DNA from: an uncultured Bacilli bacterium
GTDB lineage: Bacteria > Bacillota_I > Bacilli_A > RF39 > UBA660
Length of the DNA stretch: 64,000 nucleotides
Direction of reading: 5' to 3'
Assembly (NCBI GenBank): GCA_958413985.1
Contig: CATYVZ010000006.1
Location: 2,072 to 66,071, forward strand
Shown: positions 4,140 to 38,476 of the stretch, piece by piece
How the letters are laid out: every line of letters begins with the position of its first letter
Position numbering within the stretch: the first letter of the stretch is position 1
The notes under the pieces: model-generated
What the model was told of the DNA's origin: nothing
The model's input: only the letters and a program-made list of their open reading frames with translations
Database searches by the model: none
Made by a program: the position numbers and the translations under genes

Positions 4140-4300
4140 TTAAAAAAAGTCCAAGAATGCGGGCCCTTAACGATAAAACCTAGTCTCTACCAGGTGGGCA
4201 TCACATCGTCAACTTTAGGATTCTCAAAATTAATTGAGCTTTCAACACCGTCGACGAATTAGATTCCCAATATTCGTTAATTAGTCGGTTTTTCTAAATG
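4140..4300. other. GC-rich, non-coding, possibly structured element upstream of the tkt promoter; identity unresolved
   Basis: A local segment of roughly 45-50 % GC (gcgggcccttaacg...ctaccaggtgggcatcacatcgtc...caccgtcgacg) in a background of about 25 % GC. The overlapping + strand ORFs are low-complexity and look spurious. Confidence 0.25.
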
Positions 4301-4407
4301 AGCTTGTCGCTATTCCTAGACATTTATATTATATCATATTTTTTAAATAAGTATACTGTTTATAATCGAAGTTTCATACTTTCCCAAAATGTTAATTATT
4401 TGTTTTA

Positions 4408-9123: not shown

Positions 9124-9227
9124 CTTATCACAATTTAATTTTATCAGAATTTTAAATATTTTACAACATCTAAAACAATAAACATTATTAAATAGTTGTA
9201 AACAACTTAATTATTAGAAAAAAAGAC

Positions 9228-10541
9228 CTAGAGTTGATTATCTAAATCATTTCTTTGACCATCTTTTATTATATATTCTTCTTTAGTTCTTGAATCATAG
9301 ACATAGGTTACCTTTTGTGGTGTATTAACTTCTTCTTTTTTTATAAATATATTTTCTATCTTTTCTTTTACCTGTTCTTTGTTAAATGGTTTTGATATGT
9401 AATCTACAAATCCTTCTTTGATATATTTTTCTCTTGCTCCTGATACTGCATCAGCTGTTAATGCTATTACTGGTGTTTTAAATTCTTTATTTTCTTTTAA
9501 TTTGGCTAAAGCTCTTTCACCACTCATATTAGGCATCATTATATCCATCAATATTAAATCATATTCTTTTTCTTTTACTTTTTCGATGCACTCTATTCCA
9601 TCATAACATTCTTCTATTTCAAAGTTAAAATCTTGCAATGCTTTAATTGCTACTTTGATGTTTAATTTATTATCATCTACTATCAATATCTTTTTGCCTG
9701 ATAAATCTTTTTTGTTTTCGTTAGATAACTCATTTATATCGATATTTTCTCTTTTTTGATTACTTATTTTCTGAGGTAAATAAACTACAAATATCGATCC
9801 TTTTCCGTATTGACTTTGAACATTTATCTTACCACCCATCATCTCTACTAATGACTTAGTTATAGCTAGTCCTAATCCGGTTCCTTCGGTTGTTGAATTC
9901 ATCTCAACATCTAATCTTTCAAATTTAGTGAATAATTTGTTGATATTTTCTGCTTTTATTCCTTTCCCTGTGTCCTTAACACTTATGATTAATTTACATA
10001 TATCTTTTTCATTGATACATTTTATTCCTAATGTTATCATACCTTTTTCTGTATATTTGATCGCATTAGACAATAAATTGTTGATTACTTGTTTTATATG
10101 AATCCTATCCCCGATTAATTCTTCCGGTAAATCTTCAGCTATATCTAATTTAAATTCGATTGGTTTTTCTTTTATTCTACTAGTCGTCACTTTACATAAT
10201 GACACTATTTCTTTTTTTAAATTATATGGAGTATTGATAATTTCCATTTTTTCTGATTCGATCTTATTTATATCTAAGATATTACCTACTATTTCCAATA
10301 GCGTTTGTGAAGCATTTTGAATATCAGTAGCATCTAAAGCTACTTCGTTTGGTACTTGATCTTTATAGCTTACGATATCTTCACTTAATCCTACTATTGC
10401 ATTTAATGGCGTTCTTATCTCATGAGACATACTACTTAAAAAGTCACTCTTAGCTCGATTAGCTTTCTCAGCTAAATCTTTTGCTAGAGTCATTTGTTGT
10501 AACATCTTAACATCTGGATTTTCGATTGTAAAATACATGAT
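9228..10541. repeat. 1314-bp direct repeat, copy A. It is >99.7 % identical to 22500..23813 and covers the HisKA-HATPase-REC coding part.
   Basis: The two copies align base-for-base at an offset of 13272 bp, with 3 differences: 9231/22503 (g/a), 9258/22530 (a/g) and 10518/23790 (a/g). The latter two are synonymous. Identity stops abruptly after ...aaatacatgat. Confidence 0.9.
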
Positions 10542-11159
10542 TACACAAATTAAAGTCTCTATATATGTCATAATCAAAAGTTGAGGATTACTTATTTGAA
10601 TAGAAATCGCTATACCACCGATAATTAAAAATATAAAAACAGGTATATATTTTTTATTTTTAAGTTTATTAATATTTGTTACCAACATAAATAATATAAC
10701 AATAATTGCTAAAGCCGAAATAAGATAAGTAAAATAAACACTCGCTCCAGTTGTATATCTTATTTTGAAATCATTCTCAATAATTATATTGATAGGTAAA
10801 ATAGATAAAATAATACCTACAATTATATAATATATAATAAATATAACATATCTATTCTTCTTAATTTCTAAATCATTATTTATGATACTATAAATATAAT
10901 AAGCAAATGTAGAAATCCATAGAATTATATAAAACAGATAAATTTTATAAATAATTACACTAATTAAAGGATGGTCAAAATAAATAAAAGAAGCATAAGT
11001 GCATAATAATTCTATTATCAATCCTACAAAATTAGAAATTATCAAAACACTGAATATTTGTGTCTCTTTACTATTTATATGTCCCTTAACATAAAACAAA
11101 ATTATAACTAACAAACTAAAAGGTACTGCACATAAAGGAAAAAATATTCCACTTCCCAT
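9228..11159 (-). CDS. Hybrid sensor histidine kinase, copy 1. It has a multi-TM sensor domain, HisKA, HATPase_c and a C-terminal receiver (REC) domain.
   Basis: H-box SHEIRTPLNAIVG, G-boxes (GTGLGLAI) and a REC domain (ILIVDDN...LILMDIMMP). The likely start is the second Met at 11159, which has a GGAGG RBS; the track start at 11177 has none. The C-terminal ~437 aa are identical to copy 2. Confidence 0.85.
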   Translation of the reverse strand: MGSGIFFPLCAVPFSLLVIILFYVKGHINSKETQIFSVLIISNFVGLIIELLCTYASFIYFDHPLISVIIYKIYLFYIILWISTFAYYIYSIINNDLEIKKNRYVIFIIYYIIVGIILSILPINIIIENDFKIRYTTGASVYFTYLISALAIIVILFMLVTNINKLKNKKYIPVFIFLIIGGIAISIQISNPQLLIMTYIETLICVIMYFTIENPDVKMLQQMTLAKDLAEKANRAKSDFLSSMSHEIRTPLNAIVGLSEDIVSYKDQVPNEVALDATDIQNASQTLLEIVGNILDINKIESEKMEIINTPYNLKKEIVSLCKVTTSRIKEKPIEFKLDIAEDLPEELIGDRIHIKQVINNLLSNAIKYTEKGMITLGIKCINEKDICKLIISVKDTGKGIKAENINKLFTKFERLDVEMNSTTEGTGLGLAITKSLVEMMGGKINVQSQYGKGSIFVVYLPQKISNQKRENIDINELSNENKKDLSGKKILIVDDNKLNIKVAIKALQDFNFEIEECYDGIECIEKVKEKEYDLILMDIMMPNMSGERALAKLKENKEFKTPVIALTADAVSGAREKYIKEGFVDYISKPFNKEQVKEKIENIFIKKEEVNTPQKVTYVYDSRTKEEYIIKDGQRNDLDNQL

Positions 11160-11187
11160 ATCATAACCTCCATACATCTATTTTGAT

Positions 11188-13511: not shown

Positions 13512-14028
13512 TTACAAATCAAATTCGTAAATATTTTCTATGATTTTCAATCCACCAACATTTCCATCTTCACTATCGATTATTTTTCCACCTAATGCCG
13601 TGTAAAAATTTTCAGATGGACTTCCTTTTAAACATCTAACTATTATATTTTTATATCCCATATTTTTTAACAAATCAAAACATTCTGTAATTAATTTTTT
13701 ACCAATTCCTTTTCTTTGATTTTCTTTTTCTATATATATTGAATAAACTTCACCCATATCTACATAATCATTTCCACGTCCTTTACCATAGCAAGCAAAA
13801 CCCAATATGTCATTATCTTCTTCATAAACAATATAATGATATTCATTATCTTTTTTTATAGCTTCTTTTATATTATTATTTCTTTGTTCAAAATTTTTCT
13901 CTTGATTTATAAATATTTCTTCAGGAAAAAACTCACTATAAGTTGTCTTCCATGAATTTATATGTATTCTAGTTATTTTTTTTATGTGTTTATAGGTAAT
14001 CTTTGAAATACTTTTACATTTTTTCCAT
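13512..14028 (-). CDS. GNAT family N-acetyltransferase whose 5' end is disrupted by a +1 frameshift in an A6 tract. This could be a pseudogene, a slippage site or a sequencing error.
   Basis: The GNAT body frame is open from 14033 down to 13512 (...ITRIHINSWKTTYSEFFPEE...YHYIVYEEDNDILGFACYG...QRKGIGKKL...) with no in-frame start. An ATG at 14028 is followed by ATGGAAAAAATGTAA. Removing one A from the tract (14019..14024) fuses the ATG in frame, giving MEKCKSISKITYKHI... A TRTG-extended -10 (TGTGgCATAAT) lies at 14070..14081. Confidence 0.5.
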
Positions 14029-14170: not shown

Positions 14171-14887
14171 TCATATATTTAGAATACTTTTAACTTCTTT
14201 TGCAGCTTGACAAATCAATTTAGTGCCATTTGACAAACATATTTTTCCATGACCAGATAAAACTATATCAGCTTTATATTTTGTTAACTTTATTATACTA
14301 TTAACAATTGCTTCTTTATTAAAAGCTGGATCCCCTTCCCAACCAAATAAAAATTTATTTAAGAAGACGCCATCTGCTTCCAATGTGTCACCGGTAAACA
14401 AAACAAATTCACCATCAACTTTTGCCCTAATAGCCATTCCTCCATTTGTATGCCCTGGTATCATAATAAATTCAAATACAATACCATTGATAATCATTTC
14501 TTGATCTACAAATATTTCTACATCAGGAATAAACGCAGGAAATGATTGTTCTATGTCATCTGATGTTCCTTTTGGACCGCCTTGTTTACAATAATTTGTA
14601 TCACCTGCCCCTACTATTATCTTTGCACCTGTCATTTGTAATTCTTTAGCACCGCCACAGTGATCATGGTGTCCATGAGTAAGAATAACATGCGTTATAG
14701 GCGAATTAATATTAAATTTTTTTAACGTTTTTCTTATTATAGCAGGACCGTTTAAAGCCTCTCCGCAATCTATTAATATTAATCCTTGATCTGTATTTAT
14801 ACCATATACTTCGCCTAATGTCCCTTTATTATTTTCAGCAGCAAAGCAGCTACCACTTAAATAAAATAAATTATTTGAAATTATCAA
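14171..14887 (-). CDS. MBL-fold metallo-hydrolase
   Basis: HxHxDH motif (THGHHDHCGG) with the downstream His and Asp ligands. TTG start with a GGAGG RBS. Confidence 0.75.
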   Translation of the reverse strand: MIISNNLFYLSGSCFAAENNKGTLGEVYGINTDQGLILIDCGEALNGPAIIRKTLKKFNINSPITHVILTHGHHDHCGGAKELQMTGAKIIVGAGDTNYCKQGGPKGTSDDIEQSFPAFIPDVEIFVDQEMIINGIVFEFIMIPGHTNGGMAIRAKVDGEFVLFTGDTLEADGVFLNKFLFGWEGDPAFNKEAIVNSIIKLTKYKADIVLSGHGKICLSNGTKLICQAAKEVKSILNI

Positions 14888-14915: not shown

Positions 14916-15623
14916 TTAATCAGCAATATCTACTGTTTCATCATCATTTGAAATAAGTTCAATATTTCCTTTACAAATTCTATAACATTTCCCATAAATT
15001 TTATTATTAAATACATATGATTTATCAGGAAGTCCATAAATAATTCTATTATTTGATTCTTTTATTATTGCATCCATTTGAATCTTGTTAGGATTATCAC
15101 AATCAAAATGCGGCTCAACATTAATTGTAGTTAAATCAAGTCCTTCTAATATAGTAGGGTTAGTTAAATCTTTTTCATTTTCAGGACTACTAAATACAAT
15201 TTTTGCACTATTTATTGAACCAGCACTTATGCCAACAATACACGCATCAGTTTTTTTTATATATTTTTTAAGATTTATGTTATTAAAAAACTTGTTTTGT
15301 TGAAATGCATTACCACCACTAAGAAAAATAAGTGAACTATTATTAAGTACATTATCAATATCTTCTTTATTACGATTATCAAGTACAACATTTTCCTTGA
15401 AGTGAAGCCCAGATAACGCTAGGACTTTCATATCTAATTTTAGATACTCATCATTTTGTTCATAATTATCAGGATCGCTCGCAATAATAACAAATTTATT
15501 ATAATTATTTATATTTTCCTTCATATTTTTTAAAAAATTATTATCTTCAAAAAATTTTACTGGTATTTTTTTACCATTTTCTTTTTTTATCCCCCCAATA
15601 TTACTAGCTAAAAATAATTTCAT
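14916..15623 (-). CDS. S51 family peptidase (peptidase E/cyanophycinase-like; Asp-Xaa dipeptidase fold)
   Basis: LSGGN and GISAGS nucleophile-elbow motifs, plus conserved His and Glu. Strong AAGGAGGA RBS. Confidence 0.65.
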   Translation of the reverse strand: MKLFLASNIGGIKKENGKKIPVKFFEDNNFLKNMKENINNYNKFVIIASDPDNYEQNDEYLKLDMKVLALSGLHFKENVVLDNRNKEDIDNVLNNSSLIFLSGGNAFQQNKFFNNINLKKYIKKTDACIVGISAGSINSAKIVFSSPENEKDLTNPTILEGLDLTTINVEPHFDCDNPNKIQMDAIIKESNNRIIYGLPDKSYVFNNKIYGKCYRICKGNIELISNDDETVDIAD

Positions 15624-15633
15624 TTTATCCTCC

Positions 15634-16656
15634 TTATTTATTAATGTTATACAATAAACTATTTTCTATATTTTTTTGTAAAGTTAACACTTTGTAAAAC
15701 TCATCTTTTTTTTGTTCAAAACTAGAATGATATTCCGCACCCAAATAATTTATAATTAAATTAACTACATCTTCATTAGGATATTGTAATTGCTCATTCC
15801 AATAATTTAATACACGTAAATATTGCCTAAATTTCATTCTTAAATGCTTGGATGAATGATTAGTAACATCTTCTTTTAATAAAATTGCTACAGCTACTAA
15901 TGCATCAGCAAATTTTTCTTTCATAATAGAATCTATATCAAGAAAATCTGCTATTCTTGAGCTGGATACTGTTGAACTTGTACCAAATTTACACATTGAT
16001 AAAGCTAAGTTACTGATTCCCATATCGACAGCTAACTTTCTTTCATTATTTTCCATAACAACAAAAGAAGCAAAATTCAAAAACTCGTTTGTACCTTTTT
16101 TTTTAAGTCCTATATTAAAATCCCTTCCAAAAATATTTTTTTCATCCATACCATATCGATGTCTATAATGTTCAATACTTGATTGATCAACTAAACGAGT
16201 TATTTTACTATCAACATTTTCAGTAGCCTTTATTAAATCCTCATCCGTAGAACTTACCCTTATACAAAGATTTTCAGGAGAGATATGCAAATATTTTTCA
16301 TCAGTTAAATAATCAAAAGTATCTTTAACAATTCTTTCTAGTTCTGGTTTTGCTATTATTCCCATTCCTCTATAATAACAGCCAAATTTTTGCGGTACAT
16401 TTGTTTGTAAATATTTAAATGATTTAAATTTCATACACTCTTGCACGATATATCTTCCAACATCACCGTAATTTTCAGTCTCTAAGTATTTTTTTAATGG
16501 TGAAATATTAGAACCAATAAAGTCAACCGTTGGATCAATTTTTGAAGTAACATTAACTGCAAGTTCTTCAATGTATCCTTTCTCATTAAAACAAACTTTA
16601 AATTTTTCTTCTATAAAATCTAAATATTCGCTTTTGCTAATTTTTTTATCACTCAT
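15634..16656 (-). CDS. stand-alone paralog of the alanyl-tRNA synthetase catalytic core (class II aaRS-like, AlaRS N-terminal domain only)
   Basis: 340 aa that align by eye to the first ~250 aa of the alaS in this window. DPTVDFIGSNISPLKKYL matches DPSVLFNTAGMQPLIPYL, QECMKF matches QKCIRT, ISPENLCIRVS matches IPVERLAVTVF, and AVDMGISNLALS matches the motif-3 region NVDTGMGYERV. The tRNA-recognition and editing domains are absent. Confidence 0.55.
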   Translation of the reverse strand: MSDKKISKSEYLDFIEEKFKVCFNEKGYIEELAVNVTSKIDPTVDFIGSNISPLKKYLETENYGDVGRYIVQECMKFKSFKYLQTNVPQKFGCYYRGMGIIAKPELERIVKDTFDYLTDEKYLHISPENLCIRVSSTDEDLIKATENVDSKITRLVDQSSIEHYRHRYGMDEKNIFGRDFNIGLKKKGTNEFLNFASFVVMENNERKLAVDMGISNLALSMCKFGTSSTVSSSRIADFLDIDSIMKEKFADALVAVAILLKEDVTNHSSKHLRMKFRQYLRVLNYWNEQLQYPNEDVVNLIINYLGAEYHSSFEQKKDEFYKVLTLQKNIENSLLYNINK

Positions 16657-16661
16657 TTATA

Positions 16662-18506
16662 TCACTCTACTTCTTTTTTATCGTTAGACATTTTTAATAG
16701 TTCTCCTAAATAATAACTAATATTAGATTCAGTTACACTATTATTAATACTACCTTTATACGAATCAAGTTTTAAAAAACTATCAATTTCTTTTCCCAAT
16801 TGTTTAACAGTTTCTTTATACATTTGTGTATTAAATCTAGGAGTACATATTAATATACTTTTTGTAAGATTTATTTTATGTTTTTTAATTAATTCAACTG
16901 TTTTAGCCACTGATTCATTAGTATCCCCCATCATACCAAGCATAAAGAAACCATTATAATTAATTCCTGCTTTTTTGATTGCATATAGGGCTTTTAATAA
17001 TTGTTCATTAGAATAATTCTTGTTATTAATTTTACGAACATTTTCATCAAAACTTTCAATTCCTAACCAAATTAATTGGCAACCTGCTTTTTTCATAACA
17101 ACAAGAGTATCATAATCTATTGAATTTATACAAATCTGACATTGCCATTTGATTTGAATATTAGCCTTTATCATTTCTTTACATAAATTTTTTGCGTAAT
17201 TTTTATCAAGTATGAAATTCTGATCTAAGAAAAATATTTCTGTTATTCCACGTTTTTGTATTTCTTTTAATTCAGCTACTACTGATTCTATTTTTCTAAA
17301 ACGAACACTTTTGGCAAAAAAGTTGTAACAAAAAGCACAATTAAATGGACACCCTCTACTTGCCTGAACAATACTCCAGTGCAATTTTCTTACTGGCATA
17401 TTGTCATGATACCTATAACCAAAATAACAATCTAAATGAATCAAATCATAATTAGGTATATATTTACACCATTCAGTTGGATGTTGTTCATTCAAATCTT
17501 CTCTTGTTTTAATTAATTTTTTATTCTTTTTATAAATAATATTGGGAAGATTTTCAATTGGAAGATTTTGATCCATATCCCTAATTATATTAGCAAGCTG
17601 GATATCAAATTCGCCTTTTAATATATAATCTGGGTTACAATCTTTAAAGACGATATCTGGTCTCACAGTACCATGTCCTCCGCATACAATAATTGGTATA
17701 TTATTAAACTTATTTTTGATAGTTTTTACATATTTTGTAAAAACTACATAACGATAATCAACAAAATAATTATGTACTTGATCAACTGTTGAAGAACAAA
17801 TGACTATTCCTTTTTTGTAATCACGTATAATATTAAGTAAATCAGTTAATGAATAATTATAAATTCGATTATCAAGAATATCAACATCTATAAAAAAATT
17901 ATTTTTTAAATAAGTTGCACAATTCATTAAAGCTAAAGGCGGTTGAACAAAAGTTGTTCCATTTAAAAATTCTGGTATTAAGAATATGTATTTCCCTTTT
18001 TTCTTGAATTTTTTACTCATATCATTATTTAAACTTGTAATTGCATCAGTTAAATAATCTGGGGCTTCTTTAGTAATTTCTTCTATTTTCTTTTTACTTA
18101 TATCAAGTTGTTTTGGGCTATAAACACGATGCGTATTTTTTATAAAGTATAATATAGCAACAAGTTTTCTGGGTTTCATATCCTCGATAGCAAAAATTGC
18201 ATCAAATATTTCATTCTGTAAAGATTTTGTAGTATACTTATAAATTATTGATGATAATTCAATGATCTGTGCTATAAAATTTGATTGTTTTTTAATGCTA
18301 CTAACAACTTTTCTAACATATTCTCTTTTTTCCACTAAAGTTGCCTGTTTTAAAAAATATGTACGCATAATAAGCAATAAATTAATTTGTTCTGATTCAC
18401 TAAATTTATCAATTTTTTTTATAGTTTCATCATAAATTTCTTTTTGTTTCTTATTATTATATGTATTTATTCTTTTTATTTTTAATAATAATGTTTCTTT
18501 ATCCAC
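16662..18506 (-). CDS. B12-binding-domain radical SAM enzyme (class B radical SAM) with an unassigned ~170-aa N-terminal domain
   Basis: CxxxCxxC (RGCPFNCAFCYN), a preceding Rossmann-like B12-binding region (...IPIIVCGGHGT...), and a GTG start with an AGGAGA RBS. It lies 17 nt downstream of the preceding gene. Confidence 0.75.
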   Translation of the reverse strand: MDKETLLLKIKRINTYNNKKQKEIYDETIKKIDKFSESEQINLLLIMRTYFLKQATLVEKREYVRKVVSSIKKQSNFIAQIIELSSIIYKYTTKSLQNEIFDAIFAIEDMKPRKLVAILYFIKNTHRVYSPKQLDISKKKIEEITKEAPDYLTDAITSLNNDMSKKFKKKGKYIFLIPEFLNGTTFVQPPLALMNCATYLKNNFFIDVDILDNRIYNYSLTDLLNIIRDYKKGIVICSSTVDQVHNYFVDYRYVVFTKYVKTIKNKFNNIPIIVCGGHGTVRPDIVFKDCNPDYILKGEFDIQLANIIRDMDQNLPIENLPNIIYKKNKKLIKTREDLNEQHPTEWCKYIPNYDLIHLDCYFGYRYHDNMPVRKLHWSIVQASRGCPFNCAFCYNFFAKSVRFRKIESVVAELKEIQKRGITEIFFLDQNFILDKNYAKNLCKEMIKANIQIKWQCQICINSIDYDTLVVMKKAGCQLIWLGIESFDENVRKINNKNYSNEQLLKALYAIKKAGINYNGFFMLGMMGDTNESVAKTVELIKKHKINLTKSILICTPRFNTQMYKETVKQLGKEIDSFLKLDSYKGSINNSVTESNISYYLGELLKMSNDKKEVE

Positions 18507-18523
18507 AATTCATGTCTCCTATA

Positions 18524-20707
18524 TTATTTTTTAAAATCAGTTTCACTAATTTTACTTTCAACTATTTTAAACTTTTTATTTTCATATACTATTTTACAAT
18601 AATCAATATCAATATATTGTTCACCATCAATTGCTGACTTCAAATTACTCATTGTTGCTCCATGAGTAATGATTGCAAACTTCTTATAAGAACTATTAAC
18701 TAAATATTTTTCTAAAAAATACATTAATCTTTCCCTAACATGATTAATACTTTCACCATCAGCTACAACTTTATTATAATTAACAATTGCCTCTTTACCT
18801 TCTTGACTATTTAAAAAATCAGAAAGTGGTTTACCTTGAAATTTTCCCACATTCCAAGCTCTTAACTCTTTATGAAAAGATACTGGTATTTTAAAACCAT
18901 TATTAGCTAGTTCAACGGTTCTTCTAGTCCTAATAAGATCTGATGAATAAATATATTCAATTTCATTTTTCTTTAATTCTAAAGCAATTTTATTAATTTG
19001 CTCTAATCCTTTATCAGTAAATTTCAAAGATGCATCTTCAAATGTTCCTCTAATTTTATTTTCAACATTCCAATTAGTTTCACCATGTCTAAAAATATAA
19101 ATTTCTTTTTTGTCATTTTTTTTACTATTCTTCTCTTCTAACTTTTTCATTGGAGATAATCTATCTCTTAATCTGAAATCCATATTTTTATTATCGTTAA
19201 CAAAATCTTCTATTTTATTTATTTTTTTATCTGGAAAAAACATATTATAATATGCAATTGCTGTTTGAACATCTTGTTCTGACATTTCAAAGTGTCCTAG
19301 TTTAACTAACCCTAAGAAATCTTTATACTTATCCCTATCTAGTTGTTCACTTAATTCTTGATTTAATATTGAAGTATTAGAATTTAGATAATATTTTTTT
19401 ATAACATTTTTAGGTGATTTTATTAATTTTTGCATACTAACAGGCATGTTTTCTATTAATTTTTCATTTACAAGCCCTTGCTTTATGTAATCTTGTAATA
19501 TTCTAATATAAGCATAAAGCCTTATTTTTGCATCAGCAAAAAGGATTGCACTTGCATAATCTCTAATACCATTAGCTTTCATTAACGTAACTGTTTTAGG
19601 TGATATTTCTAATACAATTTTTTCTCTATATTTTGAACCATTATCAATATATGCTCTTGTAATTAAATTTGTCAATGTATGATTTAATGATGTTTCGTAA
19701 TTATCTTCATAGATATTTAATTGATCATCTTGAATACTATTTTGCCATGTACTAATGTTGCCATTATATTCTACAAGCCAATCTAATCCAAATCCACCAT
19801 CAGAATTATATACACGTGACGGAAAATAATTTTGTGATTCATCTAAATCTATGTCATACAGTTCTACCATTTTCATAAATGATTCATTATTATGTAGATT
19901 TGGTCTAAATGATGGATAAAATACCCTTGATATTCCAATTATTATTTCAAAACCAGAATCGAGTATTAATTTTGATTTCCAAGGCATTATCTTAATAATT
20001 TTATCATCATCAGATTTATTAGGTTGAAACTTTTCAATTTTATATTTTCTCCCAATTGTTTTTAGATTATTTTCTAATGTTGAATCTTCTTTAAATGTTT
20101 TTATTTGTAAAGTAAAGTTTTTATTATATCTATATTTAGATTCAAATATATTAATTAAGTTTTCTAACGGAAGATGTTTTAATTTAATACTATGATATTG
20201 ACTAACACTTAATCTAATAGAGATACGTGCTTTCTTTTTTCTTTTTTTGATAGCTTGATATATTTCATCTAAATATTTTTCCGCTCTTTCTTTATTATAT
20301 GCCCATAGACCACCAGTAACTAAAACTATCCTATCAGCGTTTATTTTTTCAATACTTTTTAATAGTGCTTCTTTTTCTAAAAAAGGCTCTCCGCCACCAG
20401 ATATTTGTAAATAACCAACATTTGCTTTATTAGCAAAATCAATAAATTTATCAACACCTTCAGGAGTAAATTGATTCTTAATATTCTTTTTACTAGCTGA
20501 CGATAAAGCTTTAAAACAGCAGAAAGGACAGCCAACATCACACACTGATGTAAACATAACCAATACCAATGATTTTCCTGCATATTTTTTCTTATCAATT
20601 TTTAATAAACCTTCTTGTTTATTAATTGAATCTATATACATTTCTGGATAATTAAATATATTTTCTATATTACAATCAATATTTTTTATTTCTTCTTTTT
20701 TCACCAT
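18524..20707 (-). CDS. fusion protein: N-terminal radical SAM domain, a central domain of unknown function, and a C-terminal histidine phosphatase (phosphoglycerate-mutase-like) domain
   Basis: CDVGCPFCC radical-SAM cysteine triad with a QISGGGEP SAM-binding motif. The C-terminus has IYIFRHGETNWN (RHG catalytic motif) and ...IITHGATM... typical of the His_Phos_1 superfamily. Confidence 0.75.
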   Translation of the reverse strand: MVKKEEIKNIDCNIENIFNYPEMYIDSINKQEGLLKIDKKKYAGKSLVLVMFTSVCDVGCPFCCFKALSSASKKNIKNQFTPEGVDKFIDFANKANVGYLQISGGGEPFLEKEALLKSIEKINADRIVLVTGGLWAYNKERAEKYLDEIYQAIKKRKKKARISIRLSVSQYHSIKLKHLPLENLINIFESKYRYNKNFTLQIKTFKEDSTLENNLKTIGRKYKIEKFQPNKSDDDKIIKIMPWKSKLILDSGFEIIIGISRVFYPSFRPNLHNNESFMKMVELYDIDLDESQNYFPSRVYNSDGGFGLDWLVEYNGNISTWQNSIQDDQLNIYEDNYETSLNHTLTNLITRAYIDNGSKYREKIVLEISPKTVTLMKANGIRDYASAILFADAKIRLYAYIRILQDYIKQGLVNEKLIENMPVSMQKLIKSPKNVIKKYYLNSNTSILNQELSEQLDRDKYKDFLGLVKLGHFEMSEQDVQTAIAYYNMFFPDKKINKIEDFVNDNKNMDFRLRDRLSPMKKLEEKNSKKNDKKEIYIFRHGETNWNVENKIRGTFEDASLKFTDKGLEQINKIALELKKNEIEYIYSSDLIRTRRTVELANNGFKIPVSFHKELRAWNVGKFQGKPLSDFLNSQEGKEAIVNYNKVVADGESINHVRERLMYFLEKYLVNSSYKKFAIITHGATMSNLKSAIDGEQYIDIDYCKIVYENKKFKIVESKISETDFKK

Positions 20708-20761: not shown

Positions 20762-22201
20762 CTATCTTTTATTAAATTCTTTTATCTTTCTTTTTGCATA
20801 AGTGGTCTGTGCTTTATTTATCCAATCTTCTCTTGGCCCAAATGATAAATCATCAGTAACTATTCTAACTCTATCTTTATTTTGTAATACATAATCTACT
20901 GGTACATATTCATCATTTACAAACACTCCAACCATTGTGTTTCCTATATCTGTATGAATTTTATAGGCAAAATCTATCGCTGTCGCCCCTTTGGGAAGCT
21001 CTATAATATCTCCTTTAGTTGTATAAACATATACTCTATCAGCAAATAATTCACTTTTTACTTGATTTATAAATTGTTGATTATCTCCAAACATAGAATT
21101 TATTTCTGTTAACGATTTAAAAAATTGAAATTTTTCTTTTAGATTCTCTTGCATCACATCTCTTGCTTTTCCTTTTTGTTCATCCCAATATGCCGTTAAA
21201 CCAAACGATGCTACTTTGTCCATATCGAAAGTTCTAATTTGAGTTTGAACTAATCTATCATCAGGACCAAACACTGTCGTATGTAAACTTCTATACATAT
21301 TTGTTTTTGGATTACATATATAATCTTTAAATTTATCATTTATTGGATGATATTCTTGATGAATCAAACCTAATGTTAAGTAACAATTTTCTATTTCATC
21401 AACCATTATTTTTAAAGCAAGCAAATCATGAATATCTGATAATTTATGACCTTCATTTAATCTTTTGTATATACCATATATATTTTTAGTTCTTACTTTT
21501 ATTTCATTAGGTATATTCCTATTTTTTAATAATGTTTCTATTTTATATAGCATTTCCTTAAGACAGTTTTTACTTGTTTCTTCAATCTTTGTTTTTCTTT
21601 CTTCAATTTTTTTATACATGTCTGGTTTAAGATATTGTAAAGATAAATCTTCTAGTTCTGACTTTATTCTATATGCTCCGATATAATATGCAAGTGGTAC
21701 AAATATTTCCATCGTTTCAAGGGCATTTTCTTTTTGCTTAAATTCTGATTTAAACTCTAATGTTCTCATATTATGAAGTCTATCGGCAAGTTTTATTATA
21801 ATTATTCTTACATCTTCTGTTATTCCTGTTATTATCTTTCGAGTATTTGCTAAATTTTGATCTTGTTTCGAAGAAAAATTCATTTTAGATAGTTTTGTTA
21901 CTCCATCTACTAAATTAGCAATATTTTGGTTAAAATCATGGGCAATATCTTCTTTAGTAATATTAGTATCTTCTAAAGTATCATGTAAAAGACCTGCACA
22001 TACTGTATCTTTATCAGCATGCATGTCAGATAAAATATATGCAACATTCAAAGGATGACTTATATATGGTTCACCACTTTGTCTCATTTGTCCTTTATGC
22101 AAAGCATCTGCATATTCATAAGCCTTTTTTACAATTCCTATCTCATCTGGATTATATTCTTCTAGTTTATTTAATAAATCTTGTAACACAATATTATTCA
22201 T
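20762..22201 (-). CDS. RelA/SpoT homolog (long RSH; HD hydrolase + synthetase + TGS) that lacks the C-terminal helical/ACT(RRM) region. The true start is at 22201.
   Basis: HD motif LLHDTLEDT, synthetase motifs (IHDLLALKIMV; RSLHTTVFGPDDRLVQTQIRTFDMDKVASFGLTAYW) and a TGS domain (VYVYTTKGDIIELPKGATAIDFAYKIHTDIG). The ATG at 22201 has a GGAGGTG RBS. The 24-codon upstream extension in the ORF track lacks one. Confidence 0.8.
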   Translation of the reverse strand: MNNIVLQDLLNKLEEYNPDEIGIVKKAYEYADALHKGQMRQSGEPYISHPLNVAYILSDMHADKDTVCAGLLHDTLEDTNITKEDIAHDFNQNIANLVDGVTKLSKMNFSSKQDQNLANTRKIITGITEDVRIIIIKLADRLHNMRTLEFKSEFKQKENALETMEIFVPLAYYIGAYRIKSELEDLSLQYLKPDMYKKIEERKTKIEETSKNCLKEMLYKIETLLKNRNIPNEIKVRTKNIYGIYKRLNEGHKLSDIHDLLALKIMVDEIENCYLTLGLIHQEYHPINDKFKDYICNPKTNMYRSLHTTVFGPDDRLVQTQIRTFDMDKVASFGLTAYWDEQKGKARDVMQENLKEKFQFFKSLTEINSMFGDNQQFINQVKSELFADRVYVYTTKGDIIELPKGATAIDFAYKIHTDIGNTMVGVFVNDEYVPVDYVLQNKDRVRIVTDDLSFGPREDWINKAQTTYAKRKIKEFNKR

Positions 22202-22250
22202 CAAAACACCTCCGAATAGAAAAATAATCGGTGCTAAAAACACATAATGT

Positions 22251-22388
22251 TTAACTAGCACCGATATTATCATATTTGTTATTTAAAGCAGAATAGAAAC
22301 ATGAACAAATAATGTCAGTAAAATATTGATTTCTAACACTTAATTCTTTTACATAATCAATGATTAATTCATCAATTAGTTTTATCAT
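22251..22388 (-). CDS. small protein (45 aa), first gene of the operon
   Basis: MIKLIDELIIDYVKELSVRNQYFTDIICSCFYSALNNKYDNIGAS. It has a very strong RBS (GAGGGGGAA + 6 nt + ATG) directly downstream of the operon promoter. Confidence 0.45.
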   Translation of the reverse strand: MIKLIDELIIDYVKELSVRNQYFTDIICSCFYSALNNKYDNIGAS

Positions 22389-22420: not shown

Positions 22421-22448
22421 ATTTTACTACTTTACAAAAAAATGTCAA
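22421..22448 (-). promoter_or_regulatory. sigmaA-type promoter (TTGACA-16-TAAAAT) for the operon small ORF -> rel-like -> rSAM/His-phosphatase -> B12-rSAM -> AlaRS-like -> S51 peptidase -> MBL hydrolase
   Basis: Minus strand reads TTGACAtttttttgtaaagtagTAAAAT, followed by intergenic gaps of only 5-54 nt down to 14171. Confidence 0.45.
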
Positions 22449-22499
22449 TAGTTTTATAAAAATAAATCACCGTTAAAACAATTAATATCTAAAATACAT

Positions 22500-23813
22500 C
22501 TAAAGTTGATTATCTAAATCATTTCTTTGGCCATCTTTTATTATATATTCTTCTTTAGTTCTTGAATCATAGACATAGGTTACCTTTTGTGGTGTATTAA
22601 CTTCTTCTTTTTTTATAAATATATTTTCTATCTTTTCTTTTACCTGTTCTTTGTTAAATGGTTTTGATATGTAATCTACAAATCCTTCTTTGATATATTT
22701 TTCTCTTGCTCCTGATACTGCATCAGCTGTTAATGCTATTACTGGTGTTTTAAATTCTTTATTTTCTTTTAATTTGGCTAAAGCTCTTTCACCACTCATA
22801 TTAGGCATCATTATATCCATCAATATTAAATCATATTCTTTTTCTTTTACTTTTTCGATGCACTCTATTCCATCATAACATTCTTCTATTTCAAAGTTAA
22901 AATCTTGCAATGCTTTAATTGCTACTTTGATGTTTAATTTATTATCATCTACTATCAATATCTTTTTGCCTGATAAATCTTTTTTGTTTTCGTTAGATAA
23001 CTCATTTATATCGATATTTTCTCTTTTTTGATTACTTATTTTCTGAGGTAAATAAACTACAAATATCGATCCTTTTCCGTATTGACTTTGAACATTTATC
23101 TTACCACCCATCATCTCTACTAATGACTTAGTTATAGCTAGTCCTAATCCGGTTCCTTCGGTTGTTGAATTCATCTCAACATCTAATCTTTCAAATTTAG
23201 TGAATAATTTGTTGATATTTTCTGCTTTTATTCCTTTCCCTGTGTCCTTAACACTTATGATTAATTTACATATATCTTTTTCATTGATACATTTTATTCC
23301 TAATGTTATCATACCTTTTTCTGTATATTTGATCGCATTAGACAATAAATTGTTGATTACTTGTTTTATATGAATCCTATCCCCGATTAATTCTTCCGGT
23401 AAATCTTCAGCTATATCTAATTTAAATTCGATTGGTTTTTCTTTTATTCTACTAGTCGTCACTTTACATAATGACACTATTTCTTTTTTTAAATTATATG
23501 GAGTATTGATAATTTCCATTTTTTCTGATTCGATCTTATTTATATCTAAGATATTACCTACTATTTCCAATAGCGTTTGTGAAGCATTTTGAATATCAGT
23601 AGCATCTAAAGCTACTTCGTTTGGTACTTGATCTTTATAGCTTACGATATCTTCACTTAATCCTACTATTGCATTTAATGGCGTTCTTATCTCATGAGAC
23701 ATACTACTTAAAAAGTCACTCTTAGCTCGATTAGCTTTCTCAGCTAAATCTTTTGCTAGAGTCATTTGTTGTAACATCTTAACATCTGGGTTTTCGATTG
23801 TAAAATACATGAT
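22500..23813. repeat. 1314-bp direct repeat, copy B (partner of 9228..10541)
   Basis: See copy A. Confidence 0.9.
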
Positions 23814-24413
23814 AATAACAATTAGCGAAAAAACATATCCTATTAAAAATAATTGTGGATAAAAAACACCTAAAACAAAAACTAAACCACCTAAAAAAAT
23901 TAAGGCATATAATGGTGTAAATTTAGATTTTACAATTTTCTTCATATATTTTATGCAAATAATTATATCAAACATTAAAAATAGCAAACACAAACCGTAA
24001 GTTAAATAAATTGATAATCCTTGCGGAATTATGGTATCGTCAACTCTAATAAAGTTGATTGGTAACAACAATATAATTAATACGATAAAAGCAACAATAA
24101 AATTAAATATTCTATTTCTATTTTCTTTATAGTTACATATATTTAACAAATAATTTAAAAACAATGCGCTCCAAACAGCATAATATGAAGATGTTAATTT
24201 AGAAAACAACTTATATATAGTTGTTTCAACAGATATTCCAGATTCATACCAAATACAAGTTAATATTTCTAAAAATAACCCCAATAATGTAACTATTAAT
24301 AACTTACTATAAATAGTTGTTTCACTATTTTTTACTCTTTGTTTTGAAAAAAACATAAATGACAAAATTAACAATATTAGTAATGAACTAATTGAAAAAT
24401 ACACACCCATCAT
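22500..24413 (-). CDS. Hybrid sensor histidine kinase, copy 2. Its multi-TM sensor domain differs from copy 1; the transmitter and receiver are identical to copy 1.
   Basis: The C-terminal ~437 aa are identical to copy 1. The N-terminal ~200 aa (about 6 TM segments) are unrelated in sequence. Start is ambiguous between GTG at 24422 and ATG at 24413 or 24410. Confidence 0.85.
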   Translation of the reverse strand: MMGVYFSISSLLILLILSFMFFSKQRVKNSETTIYSKLLIVTLLGLFLEILTCIWYESGISVETTIYKLFSKLTSSYYAVWSALFLNYLLNICNYKENRNRIFNFIVAFIVLIILLLPINFIRVDDTIIPQGLSIYLTYGLCLLFLMFDIIICIKYMKKIVKSKFTPLYALIFLGGLVFVLGVFYPQLFLIGYVFSLIVIIMYFTIENPDVKMLQQMTLAKDLAEKANRAKSDFLSSMSHEIRTPLNAIVGLSEDIVSYKDQVPNEVALDATDIQNASQTLLEIVGNILDINKIESEKMEIINTPYNLKKEIVSLCKVTTSRIKEKPIEFKLDIAEDLPEELIGDRIHIKQVINNLLSNAIKYTEKGMITLGIKCINEKDICKLIISVKDTGKGIKAENINKLFTKFERLDVEMNSTTEGTGLGLAITKSLVEMMGGKINVQSQYGKGSIFVVYLPQKISNQKRENIDINELSNENKKDLSGKKILIVDDNKLNIKVAIKALQDFNFEIEECYDGIECIEKVKEKEYDLILMDIMMPNMSGERALAKLKENKEFKTPVIALTADAVSGAREKYIKEGFVDYISKPFNKEQVKEKIENIFIKKEEVNTPQKVTYVYDSRTKEEYIIKDGQRNDLDNQL

Positions 24414-24461
24414 AACACCCACTTATTAATAAAATTTAACATCATTTACTTATCTCTAAAA

Positions 24462-26372: not shown

Positions 26373-28133
26373 CTATTCTAAAATAGCCTTAATTCTTCTA
26401 ACTCCTGCACTACTTGCTTCCTCTTTAACGATCTTAAACTTACCTAATTCACTGGTATTTTTCACATGTGGACCGCCACATAACTCTTTAGAAATATCAC
26501 CAATGCTATAAACAGTTACAATATCTGGATACTTCTCGATAAACATGCATTCAGCTCCAGATTTTATCGCTTCTTCCTTGCCCATTTCTACAACAGTGAC
26601 ATCTAATCCTTCATCGATCCAATCATTGACTAATTGTTCTGTTTTTTGCTTTTCTTCATCAGTTAATTTATGGTCACATGAAAAATCGAAACGCATTCTT
26701 TCACTAGTAATATTACTTCCTTTTTGATGAATATTTTTATCGACGACAATTTTTAAAGCTGCATTTAACAAATGAGTAGCTGTGTGATATTTTATTTCTT
26801 TATCTGAATCACCAGCTAAGCCACCTTTAAATTTACCACTTGAAGCAGTACGTGACAATTCCTGATGAGCTTTAAATTTCTCATTAAAACCTTCGATATC
26901 GACAACAATTCCTTTTTCATTAGCTAGTTCAACTGTCAATTCAATAGGAAAACCATAAGTATCGTATAGTTTAAACGCTAAATCTTTATTTAGTGATTTT
27001 TCTTTTAAATTGTCAGTTATTTTTTCAAACTCTTTTAATCCTTTAGCTAAAGTGCGGTTAAACTTATTTTTTTCATTAGTCAAACCTTCTAAAATGACTT
27101 CTTTATTTTTAGTTAATTCAGAATAGTATTGTGCATATTTATCGATAATCATATTAGCAATGATAACTTCCCAATTACTATTTTCATCAATCTCTAATTT
27201 TTTAGCATGTCGAATCGCACGTCTAATCAATCTTCTTAAAATATAACCTTGATCTGTATTAGAAGGTTTAATGCCAGCTTCATCACCTAATATAAAGACA
27301 GCCGTTCTGATATGGTCAGCAATTATTCTTATACTATTAGGATTTTCTTCATATGTATATTTTGCTAATTGTTCGATCTTTTTAACAATATCTATCCATA
27401 CACTTGATAGATAGTTGTCAGTAACACCTTCTAAAACAGCAACAACTCTTTCATATCCCATCCCAGTATCGACATTTTTTTGTGGTAGTTCAGTAATGTG
27501 ACCATCGTTATCTTTATAAAACTCCATAAATACATTATTCCATATTTCGACCCAACGTTCATCGTTTGGATCAAATTTAGCTGGTATTTCATCATTGCTT
27601 CGAAAATAAAATATTTCTGTATCTGGTCCGCAGGGCCCAGAATCGCCAGCAATCCAAAAATTATCTTCTTTTCCTAAATAGGCAATATGTTGATCACTTA
27701 TTCCTAAACTTTTCCAAATGTCAGCAGAGACATCATCTTTAGGAATATTGCCTTCACCTTTAAAAACTGTTACCGCTAATCTTTCGACAGGTATTTTTAA
27801 AATCTTAGTTAAAAATTCAAAACTATATCCAATACTTTCTTTTTTAAAGTAATCTCCTAATGACCAATTACCCAACATCTCAAAAAAAGTATGGTGTGTC
27901 ATATCGCCAACGCTGTCTAAATCGTTAGTTCGAATACATTTTTGATAGTCGACTAATCTTGTTCCATATGGATGTGGTCGTCCCATTAAATAAGGAATCA
28001 ACGGTTGCATTCCCGCTGTATTAAATAAAACGGAAGGATCATTTTCAGGAACCACCGGAGCTGAAGGGATCTGTTTGTGCCCTTTACTTATAAAAAAATC
28101 AATATATAAATCTTTAAGATTCATCTTTACCAC
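26373..28133 (-). CDS. alaS: alanyl-tRNA synthetase, short form (586 aa; catalytic, tRNA-recognition and editing domains, no C-Ala domain)
   Basis: N-terminus ...NDPSVLFNTAGMQP...HHTFFEMLGNWSLGDYFK..., editing-domain end ...HTATHLL...CGGPHV. Confidence 0.85.
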   Translation of the reverse strand: MVKMNLKDLYIDFFISKGHKQIPSAPVVPENDPSVLFNTAGMQPLIPYLMGRPHPYGTRLVDYQKCIRTNDLDSVGDMTHHTFFEMLGNWSLGDYFKKESIGYSFEFLTKILKIPVERLAVTVFKGEGNIPKDDVSADIWKSLGISDQHIAYLGKEDNFWIAGDSGPCGPDTEIFYFRSNDEIPAKFDPNDERWVEIWNNVFMEFYKDNDGHITELPQKNVDTGMGYERVVAVLEGVTDNYLSSVWIDIVKKIEQLAKYTYEENPNSIRIIADHIRTAVFILGDEAGIKPSNTDQGYILRRLIRRAIRHAKKLEIDENSNWEVIIANMIIDKYAQYYSELTKNKEVILEGLTNEKNKFNRTLAKGLKEFEKITDNLKEKSLNKDLAFKLYDTYGFPIELTVELANEKGIVVDIEGFNEKFKAHQELSRTASSGKFKGGLAGDSDKEIKYHTATHLLNAALKIVVDKNIHQKGSNITSERMRFDFSCDHKLTDEEKQKTEQLVNDWIDEGLDVTVVEMGKEEAIKSGAECMFIEKYPDIVTVYSIGDISKELCGGPHVKNTSELGKFKIVKEEASSAGVRRIKAILE

Positions 28134-36733: not shown

Positions 36734-38476
36734 TTATAAAATATTGGTCTTATTTTTTATTTCTTCTTTTAGTTTATCGATAAACTCAAGTCTACTAATA
36801 GTGATAGTTTCCTCACTACCTATATGACGATAACTTATTAAATTATCATCAACTTCTTTTTGTCCTAACACCAAAGTATATGGATACTTGTTAATAACAC
36901 TTTCTCTCATTCGATAACCGACCTTTTCTTCGCGATTATCTAGTTCTACTCTGACACCATTGCTAAACAATTCATCGTAAATTTCCCTAGCATATTTTAA
37001 ATGATGTTCATTATTAACTGGAATAATGTTAACTTGAACTGGCGCTAACCAAGTTGGAAATGCTCCCGCATAATGTTCAGTAATGATACCAATGAATCTT
37101 TCGATCGAACCAAAGATAACGCGATGGAGCATGATCGGTCTTTTTTTACTTCCATCACTAGCAACATAGGTTAAATCAAATCGTTCAGGTAGATTCATAT
37201 CTAATTGAATCGTACCACATTGCCAAACTCTTCCTAATGAATCTTTGACATGAAAATCTAATTTAGGGCCATAGAAAGCGCCATCTCCCTGATTGATTTT
37301 GCATTCTTTACCTGTTTTCTTGCAAGCTTCTAACAAAGTTTTTTCAGATTTGTCCCAAACCTCAATACTGCCGATATATTTACTAGGACGAGTCGATAAT
37401 TCGATCGTATAAGATAAATTAAATATCGAATAGATGCGATCGATAAAATTGATTAATTTAATTATTTCTGATTCGATCTGTTCTTCCGTCATAAAAATAT
37501 GGGCATCATCTTGCGTAAAAGTTCTTACGCGAAATAGTCCATTTAAAGCCCCGCTTGCTTCGTGGCGATGAACAAGTCCTAATTCACCCATTCTTAAAGG
37601 GAGCTCTTTATAGGAATGTAAACCATTTTTATAAACTAACATACCACCTGGACAATTCATCGGTTTAATCGCAAATTCTTTTTCATCGATTAAAGAAGTA
37701 TACATATTTTCTTTGTAATTAGCCCAATGACCAGATACTTCCCATAGATCACGGTTCAACATAATTGGTGTTTTGATAAATAAATATCCTTCTTTAGTAT
37801 GTTCTTGATACCAAAAGTCTTCTAACTCTTTTCTTAGAACCATTCCTTTAGGCAACCAAAAAGGAAATCCCGGACCATATTCACTAAACATAAATAATCC
37901 TAAATCTTTACCTAATTTTTTGTGATCACGTTTTTTAGCTTCTTCTAAATAGTTTAGATGTTCTTGTAAAGCTTCTTCTGTGTCAAAACAAACGCCATAG
38001 ATTCTTTGAAGCATTTTATTTTTTGAGTCGCCTTTAAAATAAGCACCACTTACTTTAAGGAGTTTAAAGTTTTTAAGTAACTTAGTACTTTCGACATGTG
38101 GTCCTTTGCAAAGATCGGTAAAATCTCCTTGTGTATAACAAGAAATGACTGTATCATCACTCATATTGTTAATTAAGTCGATTTTATATGGATCATTTTT
38201 AAACAATTCCAAAGCTTCTTCTTTTTTTAATTCTTCACGATAAATTCGCTTGCCATCCTTAGCAAGTTTTTTCATCTCTTTTTCGATTTTTTCTAGGTCT
38301 TCTTCTTTAATTACTTCATCACCTAAATCGATATCATAGTAAAAACCTTCTTCGATAACCGGACCAACCCAGAATAGAGCTTTAGGATATAAATGTTTAA
38401 CGGCTTGCGCTAAAAGATGTGCACAACTATGATTTAAAATATTTAATTTTTCATCTTCTTTGATATTTTTTAACAT
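36734..38476 (-). CDS. thrS: threonyl-tRNA synthetase lacking the N-terminal TGS (N1) domain
   Basis: It begins at the editing-domain HSCAHLLAQA motif. Class II motifs and the anticodon-binding domain are present (580 aa). Confidence 0.85.
   Translation of the reverse strand: MLKNIKEDEKLNILNHSCAHLLAQAVKHLYPKALFWVGPVIEEGFYYDIDLGDEVIKEEDLEKIEKEMKKLAKDGKRIYREELKKEEALELFKNDPYKIDLINNMSDDTVISCYTQGDFTDLCKGPHVESTKLLKNFKLLKVSGAYFKGDSKNKMLQRIYGVCFDTEEALQEHLNYLEEAKKRDHKKLGKDLGLFMFSEYGPGFPFWLPKGMVLRKELEDFWYQEHTKEGYLFIKTPIMLNRDLWEVSGHWANYKENMYTSLIDEKEFAIKPMNCPGGMLVYKNGLHSYKELPLRMGELGLVHRHEASGALNGLFRVRTFTQDDAHIFMTEEQIESEIIKLINFIDRIYSIFNLSYTIELSTRPSKYIGSIEVWDKSEKTLLEACKKTGKECKINQGDGAFYGPKLDFHVKDSLGRVWQCGTIQLDMNLPERFDLTYVASDGSKKRPIMLHRVIFGSIERFIGIITEHYAGAFPTWLAPVQVNIIPVNNEHHLKYAREIYDELFSNGVRVELDNREEKVGYRMRESVINKYPYTLVLGQKEVDDNLISYRHIGSEETITISRLEFIDKLKEEIKNKTNIL

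Follow-up and report, generated by a model that had tools for sequence, protein, structure and literature searches.

What is the role of a radical S-adenosylmethionine (SAM) protein that joins a cobalamin-type catalytic core to an N-terminal domain of no known family, and what does the operon around it make? The gene in question lies in a 64,000-nucleotide stretch of contig CATYVZ010000006.1 (assembly GCA_958413985.1) from an uncultured Bacilli bacterium; this whole stretch is referred to here as the window, and the 614-residue product of the open reading frame (ORF), which starts with GTG on the minus strand, as the target (Table 1). An earlier note on the same DNA, which gave no strand, had read the ORF as a B12-binding (class B) radical SAM enzyme with about 170 additional N-terminal residues. 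Our analysis suggests that the target is a HEAT-like solenoid joined to a class-B-type radical SAM core and encoded in a mobile operon for an aminoacyl-nucleoside-type metabolite, and we give this overall explanation a probability of about 45%. The clade to which the target belongs is defined by the HEAT-like partner module together with a distinctive mobile gene neighborhood.

The class-B-type core of the target spans residues ~172-560. Pfam Radical_SAM (PF04055) matches residues 382-540 with an E-value of 3.9e-26, above the cut-off, and the three cysteines of C386-x3-C390-x-F392-C393, as well as F392 itself, are invariant in 23 sequences. With this CX3CXφC motif in its barrel, the target is a member of the radical SAM superfamily. 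The B12-binding family of Pfam (PF02310) aligns with residues 187-304 at an E-value of 1.2e-4, but its 22.4 bits lie under the gathering score of 32.1, and the scan for these two families that the earlier note had proposed thus recovered one above threshold and the other below it. Among the relatives (L001-L016 denote the related loci that were read and P-numbers the related proteins), PF02310 is listed without a weak mark for the split forms of L015 and L016 and is also listed for P0030-32, marked weak for P0031. Furthermore, the NCBIfam models of the B12-type radical SAM enzymes BchE, HpnJ, BzaD, and HpnR and of TIGR04295 align from residue ~188-209 through the barrel, those of BchE, BzaD, and HpnR beginning at residue ~188-190. 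Together with the unmarked PF02310 matches of the split-form relatives and the cobalamin-tail motifs described below, these alignments indicate that the B12-type Rossmann signature, without which the original assignment would have fallen, is present, although weak in Pfam.

The AlphaFold2 model of the whole target, built on 23 family members, has a predicted local distance difference test score (pLDDT) of 89.7 and a predicted template modeling score (pTM) of 0.90. It is composed of nine helices (residues 3-164), five Rossmann strands (173-177, 208-212, 233-237, 272-275, and 294-296) with a hairpin (323-327/330-333), the barrel, and C-terminal helices. In Class 1 cobalamin-dependent radical SAM enzymes, the Rossmann domain and then a β-hairpin lie N-terminal to the barrel (PMC13331322), and the predicted five-stranded Rossmann domain and hairpin of the target correspond to this arrangement. 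When the Protein Data Bank (PDB) was searched with Foldseek, the top matches were AprD4, TsrM, the methyl-coenzyme M reductase (MCR) glutamine methylase 9ccb, OxsB, CysS, and TokK, with 425-516 aligned columns, and MiaB and RimO ranked after them. A comparison with TsrM-, PhpK-, and OxsB-type enzymes had been suggested from the sequence; the likeness to TsrM and OxsB is borne out at the level of fold, whereas the PhpK family (TIGR04479), which is the top NCBIfam match, scores 124 bits against a cut-off of 600 and covers residues 287-544 only, which does not place the target within it. Similarly, the AprD4-family diol dehydratases (NF033070) score 81.4 bits against a 500-bit cut-off, over the barrel only, and the target does not belong to that family either. 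By analogy with TsrM, TokK, and OxsB (PMC9204698), the C-terminal helices of the target may possibly form a substrate cap.

In solved cobalamin enzymes, the cobalamin tail is held by one or more glycines on β4, where Gly(-Gly) forms the pocket for the dimethylbenzimidazole and ribose, and by a Gly-Glu at the start of α5 (PMC9204698). Comparing these positions within the target clade, the β4 motif reads V274-C-G276-G277-H-G-T280, in which G276 is invariant and position 277 is Gly, Ala, or Ser. Likewise, K297-G298-E299 stands directly before α5, with G298 invariant and E299 present in 90% or more of the sequences. In the alignment with the cobalamin-dependent 9ccb, the pairs G276-G277 and G298-E299 fall in register with its VVGGP and QGEGE, and the clade accordingly appears, by sequence, to retain both the small-residue pair on β4 and the Gly-Glu before α5. 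TsrM, TokK, CysS, and the MCR glutamine C-methyltransferase share the β4 Gly pair and the Gly-Glu with the target, as well as the Rossmann domain with trailing hairpin and the CX3CXφC barrel. Unlike the target, none of them has a HEAT-like domain.

AprD4, the radical SAM 1,2-diol dehydratase of apramycin biosynthesis, is regarded as a B12-independent enzyme. Its structure (PDB 6fd2) contains a Rossmann-like domain and a barrel as in the target, with a fold match of E = 1.5e-19 and a template modeling score (TMt) of 0.72 at 15-16% identity; the sequence match (E = 8.9e-18 with the single sequence and 2.7e-25 with a profile) is restricted to the barrel (residues 371-566). However, AprD4 has no N-terminal solenoid, and the target clade, unlike AprD4, retains the cobalamin-tail motifs. 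Because the best solved match is B12-independent, genuine use of cobalamin by the target is likely but unproven. That the target is a class-B-type radical SAM enzyme with the domain architecture given in Table 1 is very probable. It lies outside every characterized B12 radical SAM family and belongs to a rare, uncharacterized clade.

The N-terminal residues 1-170 are extra because the generic B12 radical SAM relatives found on plasmids, among them HpnJ and BchE, show alignment from residue ~174-190 onward only, and the ~440-residue relatives P0030-32 are without this segment. The absence of a known motif also holds, as neither a Pfam family nor a PDB sequence was found to match the domain. Modeled alone, it has a pLDDT of 93 and is confidently predicted to be a nine-helix HEAT/ARM-like solenoid. 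A Foldseek search of the domain returned nothing below an E-value of 0.02, the top matches being designed repeats and the RNA-binding repeats of Pumilio (E ~0.03). Across the full-length family, K90, R113, and F121 do not vary, and a motif FIKNTH(K/R)xYS is conserved. An N-terminal domain of the OxsB type found no support, and sequence homology to OxsB extending to its N-terminal domain was not detected. In the profile libraries, solved structures, and literature that were searched, no HEAT-like module of this kind was found, and the literature on this gene combination, or on HEAT domains with cobalamin radical SAM enzymes, contained nothing directly relevant.

A profile of the N-terminal domain, searched at E-values up to 1e-3, matched 23 of 1.84 billion (1.84e9) representative proteins. 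About half of the 23 carriers are fused to the radical SAM clade of the target (587-622 residues, plus one likely fragment of 420 residues), and the remaining ones are 130-256 residues long, mostly 160-190, and could be free-standing proteins, although some may be fragments; among these short carriers, the genomic context was taken from P0135 only. In the corresponding loci, L015 and L016, a 184-residue gene lies directly upstream of a 446-residue B12 radical SAM gene, with an overlap of 4 nt. The 446-residue protein aligns with the target from residue 175 (35% identity, E = 2e-91), and the 184-residue product matches the N-terminal domain profile (hhalign 95.7%, E = 1e-8). L014 offers a weaker example of the split form (E = 1.5e-6). 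The solenoid thus behaves as a dedicated partner module of the clade: it is either fused to the core or, in the single context read, encoded separately by a neighboring gene that overlaps that of a short B12 radical SAM protein.

The target is encoded by the third of six tightly spaced genes on the minus strand (gaps of 54, 17, 5, 10, and 28 nt). As the earlier note had described, its neighbors are a radical SAM protein fused to a histidine phosphatase domain upstream and a 340-residue protein weakly resembling alanyl-tRNA synthetase (AlaRS) downstream. Read on the reverse strand, the upstream junction runs from TAA (18526-18524) through tat, AGGAGA (18520-18515), and catgaatt to GTG (18506-18504), which agrees with the GTG start, the ribosome-binding site, and the 17 nt from the upstream stop that had been reported. 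Translational coupling with the upstream gene may be suspected from this short gap. The GTG start is supported because homologs with 80-92% identity have the same length as the target and begin at the identical residue; the L009 homolog likewise starts with GTG. The first gene of the operon, which is Rel-like, was called as an ORF at 20762-22273 (-), and translation probably begins at the ATG at 22201 (479 residues), as in its homologs. The protein has none of the regulatory domains that long Rel enzymes carry at the C terminus, and its synthetase motif differs from the EVQIRT of Rel enzymes, presumably with Gln in place of the catalytic Glu. In the equivalents of L012 and L015, the HD and TGS domains are kept, and the synthetase region is degenerate or lost. 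The AlaRS-like protein has an NCBIfam match with an E-value of 1.4e-6 (27 bits) and aligns with the AlaRS of the window at a BLASTP E-value of 0.01; neither a sequence nor a profile search of the PDB gave a match.

The same six genes occur in identical order in L009 and L010, and L001 has them with the metallo-beta-lactamase-fold (MBL) gene before the S51 gene and the latter on the opposite strand. The fused radical SAM-phosphatase gene adjoins the target gene in these three loci as well. The exact target sequence has no database entry, and the genomes nearest to it are those of 'Mycoplasma sp. CAG:611' (89% identity) and a metagenome-assembled genome of a human-gut uncultured Bacilli (85%). 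In the former (L009, HF999802.1), the gene for a D-Ala-D-Ala carboxypeptidase (penicillin-binding protein 5, PBP5) is split into an S11 N-terminal part (1828-2502) and a PBP5_C part (15165-15524), with ~12.6 kb between them. This insert holds a large serine recombinase, a helix-turn-helix protein, a sigma-like protein, and the six-gene operon, and its position between the halves of a split gene marks it as an integrated mobile element that carries the operon as cargo. In addition, a type IV secretion system coupling protein, a serine recombinase, and tRNA-Trp are found upstream in L001, a relaxase and MobC are present on the element of L008, and L007 carries insertion sequence transposases. 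As the operon is mobile cargo, the Rel-like gene is cargo too and not a housekeeping Rel. A phage origin was rejected, given that no match was found in phage records or IMG/VR viral contigs, and plasmids contain only distant B12 radical SAM proteins without the N-terminal domain. In the Bacteroidales-type L008 (L008:5518-8554), the cluster lies directly downstream of the genes for an AbiEii toxin and a Piwi-domain (prokaryotic Argonaute) protein.

More distant loci, with target homologs of 32-47% identity, were compared as well. A second radical SAM protein is encoded in every locus read, and those of L002, L005, L007, L008, L011, L012, L013, and L014 belong to one related partner family. Aminoacyl-tRNA synthetase (aaRS) or aaRS-like genes are present in 6 of ~9 cluster types: the AlaRS-like gene in the window type, tRNA-synt_2 in L005 and L012 (the latter also with a class I lysyl-tRNA synthetase), tRNA-synt_2b in L014 with its homolog in L007, and two full prolyl-tRNA synthetases (ProRS) in L015. 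Proteins with HD_4/TGS recur in the window type, L012, and L015, and His_Phos_1 recurs in the window type, L002, L008, and L011. An S51 peptidase is found in L007, ATP-grasp ligases and major facilitator superfamily (MFS) transporters in L007 and L014, a carrier protein and a NUDIX protein in L014, and a GNAT acetyltransferase in L005. The split-form cluster (L015:694-10548 and L016), which was found on ENA metagenome contigs, also includes a radical SAM protein (360 residues), the two full-length ProRS genes in tandem, a PNP_UDP_1 nucleosidase/phosphorylase, a cytidine deaminase, and HD_4 with TGS. That a complete ProRS gene is duplicated suggests a resistance copy or, alternatively, chemistry that depends on tRNA. 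Since phosphohydrolases, nucleoside enzymes, amino-acid-activating enzymes, a peptidase or acetyltransferase, and exporters recur, an amino-acid-bearing nucleoside-type metabolite fits these clusters. The cluster with the 47%-identical homolog ends in an RlmN/Cfr-like radical SAM gene (L005:14921-15877); were this a Cfr-type rRNA methyltransferase, one could suspect self-resistance to a product that targets the ribosome.

Two known systems come close to this gene content. OxsB depends on having the HD phosphohydrolase OxsA close by, AlsB on a second radical SAM enzyme, and both act on dAMP/dATP (PMC13331322). As in these ring contractions of oxetanocin A and albucidin biosynthesis (partners OxsA and AlsA), the operon of the target has an HD-domain phosphohydrolase and a second radical SAM protein and includes phosphatase chemistry. 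The fold match to OxsB ranks eighth in Foldseek with an E-value of 6.6e-16; the HD_4 hydrolase and second radical SAM protein of the operon are, as far as tested, not homologs of OxsA and AlsA. Likewise, in the sinefungin pathway a B12 radical SAM enzyme works alongside cryptic phosphorylation and dephosphorylation, the ligation of alanine, and an export step (bioRxiv 10.64898/2026.05.21.726688). With its SinC B12 radical SAM enzyme, kinase/phosphatase pair, alanine-adding peptide aminoacyl-tRNA ligases (PEARLs), and MFS exporter, it follows a logic like that of the operon, including a likely later peptidase step. However, alanine is added there by tRNA-dependent PEARLs and in the operon presumably by the truncated AlaRS-like enzyme; organisms and remaining genes also differ, and the likeness drawn here is one of pathway logic.

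Taken as a small-molecule pathway, the operon would start from a phosphorylated nucleoside or nucleotide whose sugar or base is remodeled by the two radical SAM enzymes. The target would contribute a C-methylation or a C-C rearrangement, between which we cannot choose, by means of cobalamin and radicals derived from SAM. The HD and histidine phosphatase modules would then strip phosphates, and the AlaRS-like enzyme would attach an amino acid to give an aminoacyl-nucleoside-type antimetabolite, with the S51 peptidase and the MBL hydrolase serving in processing or self-protection. The most likely role of the solenoid would be docking, in which it keeps a bulky substrate or another enzyme of the pathway at the active site; this is proposed by analogy with the dependence of OxsB on a nearby OxsA. 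This nucleoside pathway as such is tentative, with the odds somewhat against it. A bolder version is doubtful: the HEAT-like module and the B12-type core, whether fused or split, would form a dedicated two-part catalytic unit that defines a hitherto unrecognized family of mobile clusters in gut anaerobes, and these clusters would make aminoacyl-nucleoside 'Trojan-horse' antimetabolites. We consider three further elements of this version, held jointly, to be equally speculative, namely that the amino acid varies by cluster (Ala, Pro, Asp/Lys-type, and Ser/Thr-type synthetase paralogs), that the matching tRNA synthetases or the ribosome are the targets of the products, and that a new cobalamin-dependent sugar or base rearrangement takes place in complex with a Rel-derived HD/TGS hydrolase.

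Several observations weigh against the aminoacyl-nucleoside explanation. No member of the clade has an assigned substrate or product. Because all NCBIfam scores of the target are far below the family cut-offs, no reaction type can be transferred to it; in addition, its PF02310 match falls short of the gathering score, and its best solved match by both sequence and fold is AprD4. Genes for cobalamin transport or synthesis and a B12 riboswitch were not found in the window, a result that does not extend to the rest of the genome. The assignment of the 340-residue protein as AlaRS-like is weak, depending on the 27-bit NCBIfam match and an N-terminal motif because the PDB profile search was empty. 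The fused radical SAM protein of the window is not detectably related to the partner radical SAM proteins of the other loci. Moreover, the Bacteroidales/Eubacteriales loci (L002, L008, and L011) have no aaRS-like genes and instead contain glycosyltransferases, an aldo-keto/Fe-S reductase, further radical SAM proteins, and UDP-galactopyranose mutase, which point to sugar rather than nucleoside chemistry. Finally, the docking role of the solenoid is purely inferred.

The resemblance to AprD4 also raises the alternative that the target is a B12-independent dehydratase or lyase with a cobalamin-free relic of a Rossmann domain, in which a sugar or cyclitol diol loses a hydroxyl group and a reductase completes the deoxygenation. 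AprD4 and AprD3 form such a dehydratase-reductase pair, an arrangement mirrored in L002, L008, and L011, where an aldo-keto reductase with Fe-S domains is encoded two genes downstream with a small radical SAM gene in between, and AprD4 heads the PDB ranking. We regard this reading as unlikely, given that the sequence match is confined to the barrel, that NF033070 reaches 81 of the 500 bits required, that the β4 and pre-α5 motifs are kept throughout the clade and line up with those of a proven cobalamin enzyme, and that no reductase is encoded in the operon of the window. Less probable is a macromolecular substrate, with the solenoid as a recognition module for a protein or peptide, as in the pathways to peptides made on the ribosome and modified after translation (RiPPs) or in MCR glutamine methylation, or for tRNA or rRNA. 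Alpha-solenoids usually bind proteins or RNA, and fold matches to the core include the MCR glutamine methylase, MiaB, and RimO. Those to the N-terminal domain include Pumilio repeats, although only at E ~0.03, and the TGS domains and tRNA synthetases encoded nearby handle tRNA. However, neither a precursor-peptide gene nor a RiPP recognition element domain is evident in the tight operon of the window, and no cluster contains a tRNA gene. The sporadic, mobile-element distribution is unlike that of housekeeping RNA modification, and the MFS exporters, ATP-grasp ligases, and carrier protein of related loci fit a secreted small molecule. Expansion of the genetic code, as for pyrrolysine (a radical SAM enzyme, a ligase, a dedicated synthetase, and a tRNA), was rejected because no tRNA gene was found within a related cluster or anywhere in the window, the tRNA-Trp at the edge of L001 being the single tRNA detected.

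A function in anti-phage or abortive-infection defense appears still less probable; here, the product would be a viperin-like modified nucleotide that stays in the cell rather than a secreted antibiotic. The pairing of a radical SAM enzyme with nucleotide-handling enzymes recalls the prokaryotic viperins, the operon is cargo of mobile elements, and the L008 copy adjoins the AbiEii and Piwi/Argonaute genes. PADLOC returned weak matches for the barrel (PDC-M51A) and the Rel synthetase region (PDC-S33), but these concern generic domains, and 4 of the 7 operon-region proteins scanned had no match at all; a known defense system was therefore rejected. In addition, the lack of matches in phage records and viral contigs argues against defense, and the exporters, ligases, and carrier protein of related loci fit biosynthesis for export. 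The most improbable alternative concerns the helical domain, which might shield the cofactor as a cobalamin cap rather than dock partners. In methionine synthase (MetH), a helical cap precedes the B12 domain, the same order as that of the solenoid directly N-terminal to the Rossmann domain of the target, and the pTM of 0.90 suggests a fixed packing of the solenoid on the core. The cap role of the MetH helical bundle is described in PMC9204698, but the N-terminal domain of the target does not match B12-binding_2 and differs from that bundle in size and fold.

The clade is of interest in several respects. Cobalamin-type radical SAM enzymes carry out some of the hardest natural-product reactions, and only a handful of them have a known structure or reaction; the clade adds a HEAT-like solenoid accessory module to this group. 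Because fused and separate adjacent forms both exist, a partner or adaptor role of the solenoid is directly testable. The combination of a second radical SAM protein, phosphohydrolases, and tRNA synthetase paralogs on mobile elements of human-gut bacteria points to an unexplored family of nucleoside-type metabolites, which could matter for microbiome competition and as antibiotic leads. If the target should instead be cobalamin-free, it would be a second AprD4-like case and help to define sequence predictors of cobalamin dependence.

Table 1 Operon genes, domains of the target, and signals in the window
Feature	Position	Strand	Remark
Promoter-like site TTGACA-16-TAAAAT ahead of the Rel-like gene, 11/12; candidate operon promoter	22421..22448	-	Consensus match only
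Gene 1: Rel-like protein, HD_4 + RelA_SpoT + TGS	20762..22201	-	HD residues intact; synthetase motif VQTQIRT
Gene 2: 727-residue radical SAM protein (CX3CX2C, residues 56-63) fused to His_Phos_1 (536-706)	18524..20707	-	
AGGAGA ribosome-binding site	18515..18520	-	8 nt before GTG; from sequence
Gene 3: target, with helical-repeat domain, B12-type Rossmann domain, radical SAM barrel, and C-terminal helices	16662..18506	-	
Target, nine-helix HEAT/ARM-like alpha-solenoid (predicted), residues 1-168	18003..18506	-	
Target, five-stranded B12-binding-type Rossmann domain with trailing β-hairpin, residues 172-345	17472..17993	-	
Target, radical SAM barrel, residues 360-560, C386-x3-C390-x-F-C393	16827..17429	-	PF04055; invariant cysteines
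Target, C-terminal helical region, residues 561-614; possible substrate cap	16665..16826	-	AlphaFold2 secondary structure
Gene 4: 340-residue protein, weakly AlaRS-like, catalytic-domain motifs only	15634..16656	-	NCBIfam PRK01584
Gene 5: Peptidase S51 (PepE/cyanophycinase family)	14916..15623	-	
Gene 6: MBL-fold hydrolase, last conserved gene of the operon	14171..14887	-	

The promoter-like sites of the region, among them the one listed in Table 1, are not more numerous than in shuffled sequences. The G+C content of the window is 24-34%. The rest of the window consists of ordinary chromosomal genes (RRF, RsgA, PrkC/PP2C, RlmN, threonyl-tRNA synthetase, Lon, RNase Y, RecA, and PBP1), and by these genes the host is of the wall-bearing Firmicute type. 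The window AlaRS (26373-28133, -) has 586 residues and ends right after the tRNA_SAD motif of the editing domain, without a C-Ala domain; the threonyl-tRNA synthetase (36734-38476, -) has 580 residues. The AlaRS gene lies ~4 kb from the operon, with an AMP-ligase and a kinase gene in between, and may be either a plain housekeeping enzyme of a compact genome or an immunity copy as well. No tRNA gene was found by ARAGORN and no riboswitch, cobalamin riboswitches included, at the Rfam gathering score in the window.

Just downstream of the operon, a 97-residue GNAT acetyltransferase ORF (13512-13805, -) covers the C-terminal two-thirds of the fold and is likely a gene fragment or pseudogene. A near-perfect direct repeat of ~1.32 kb was observed at 9219-10540 and 22491-23812, 13,272 bp apart, which brackets the six-gene operon, the GNAT fragment, a 122-residue ORF, and the AMP-ligase. 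It encodes the identical C-terminal 440 residues of two hybrid histidine kinases (9228-11177 and 22500-24422), the N-terminal membrane sensors of which are divergent. The repeat could reflect island-linked recombination or gene conversion, or it could be an artifact of metagenome assembly. Two structured RNAs were also identified on the minus strand, a class B RNase P RNA at 54796-55128 (267 bits) and a 6S RNA at 4144-4325 (72.5 bits).

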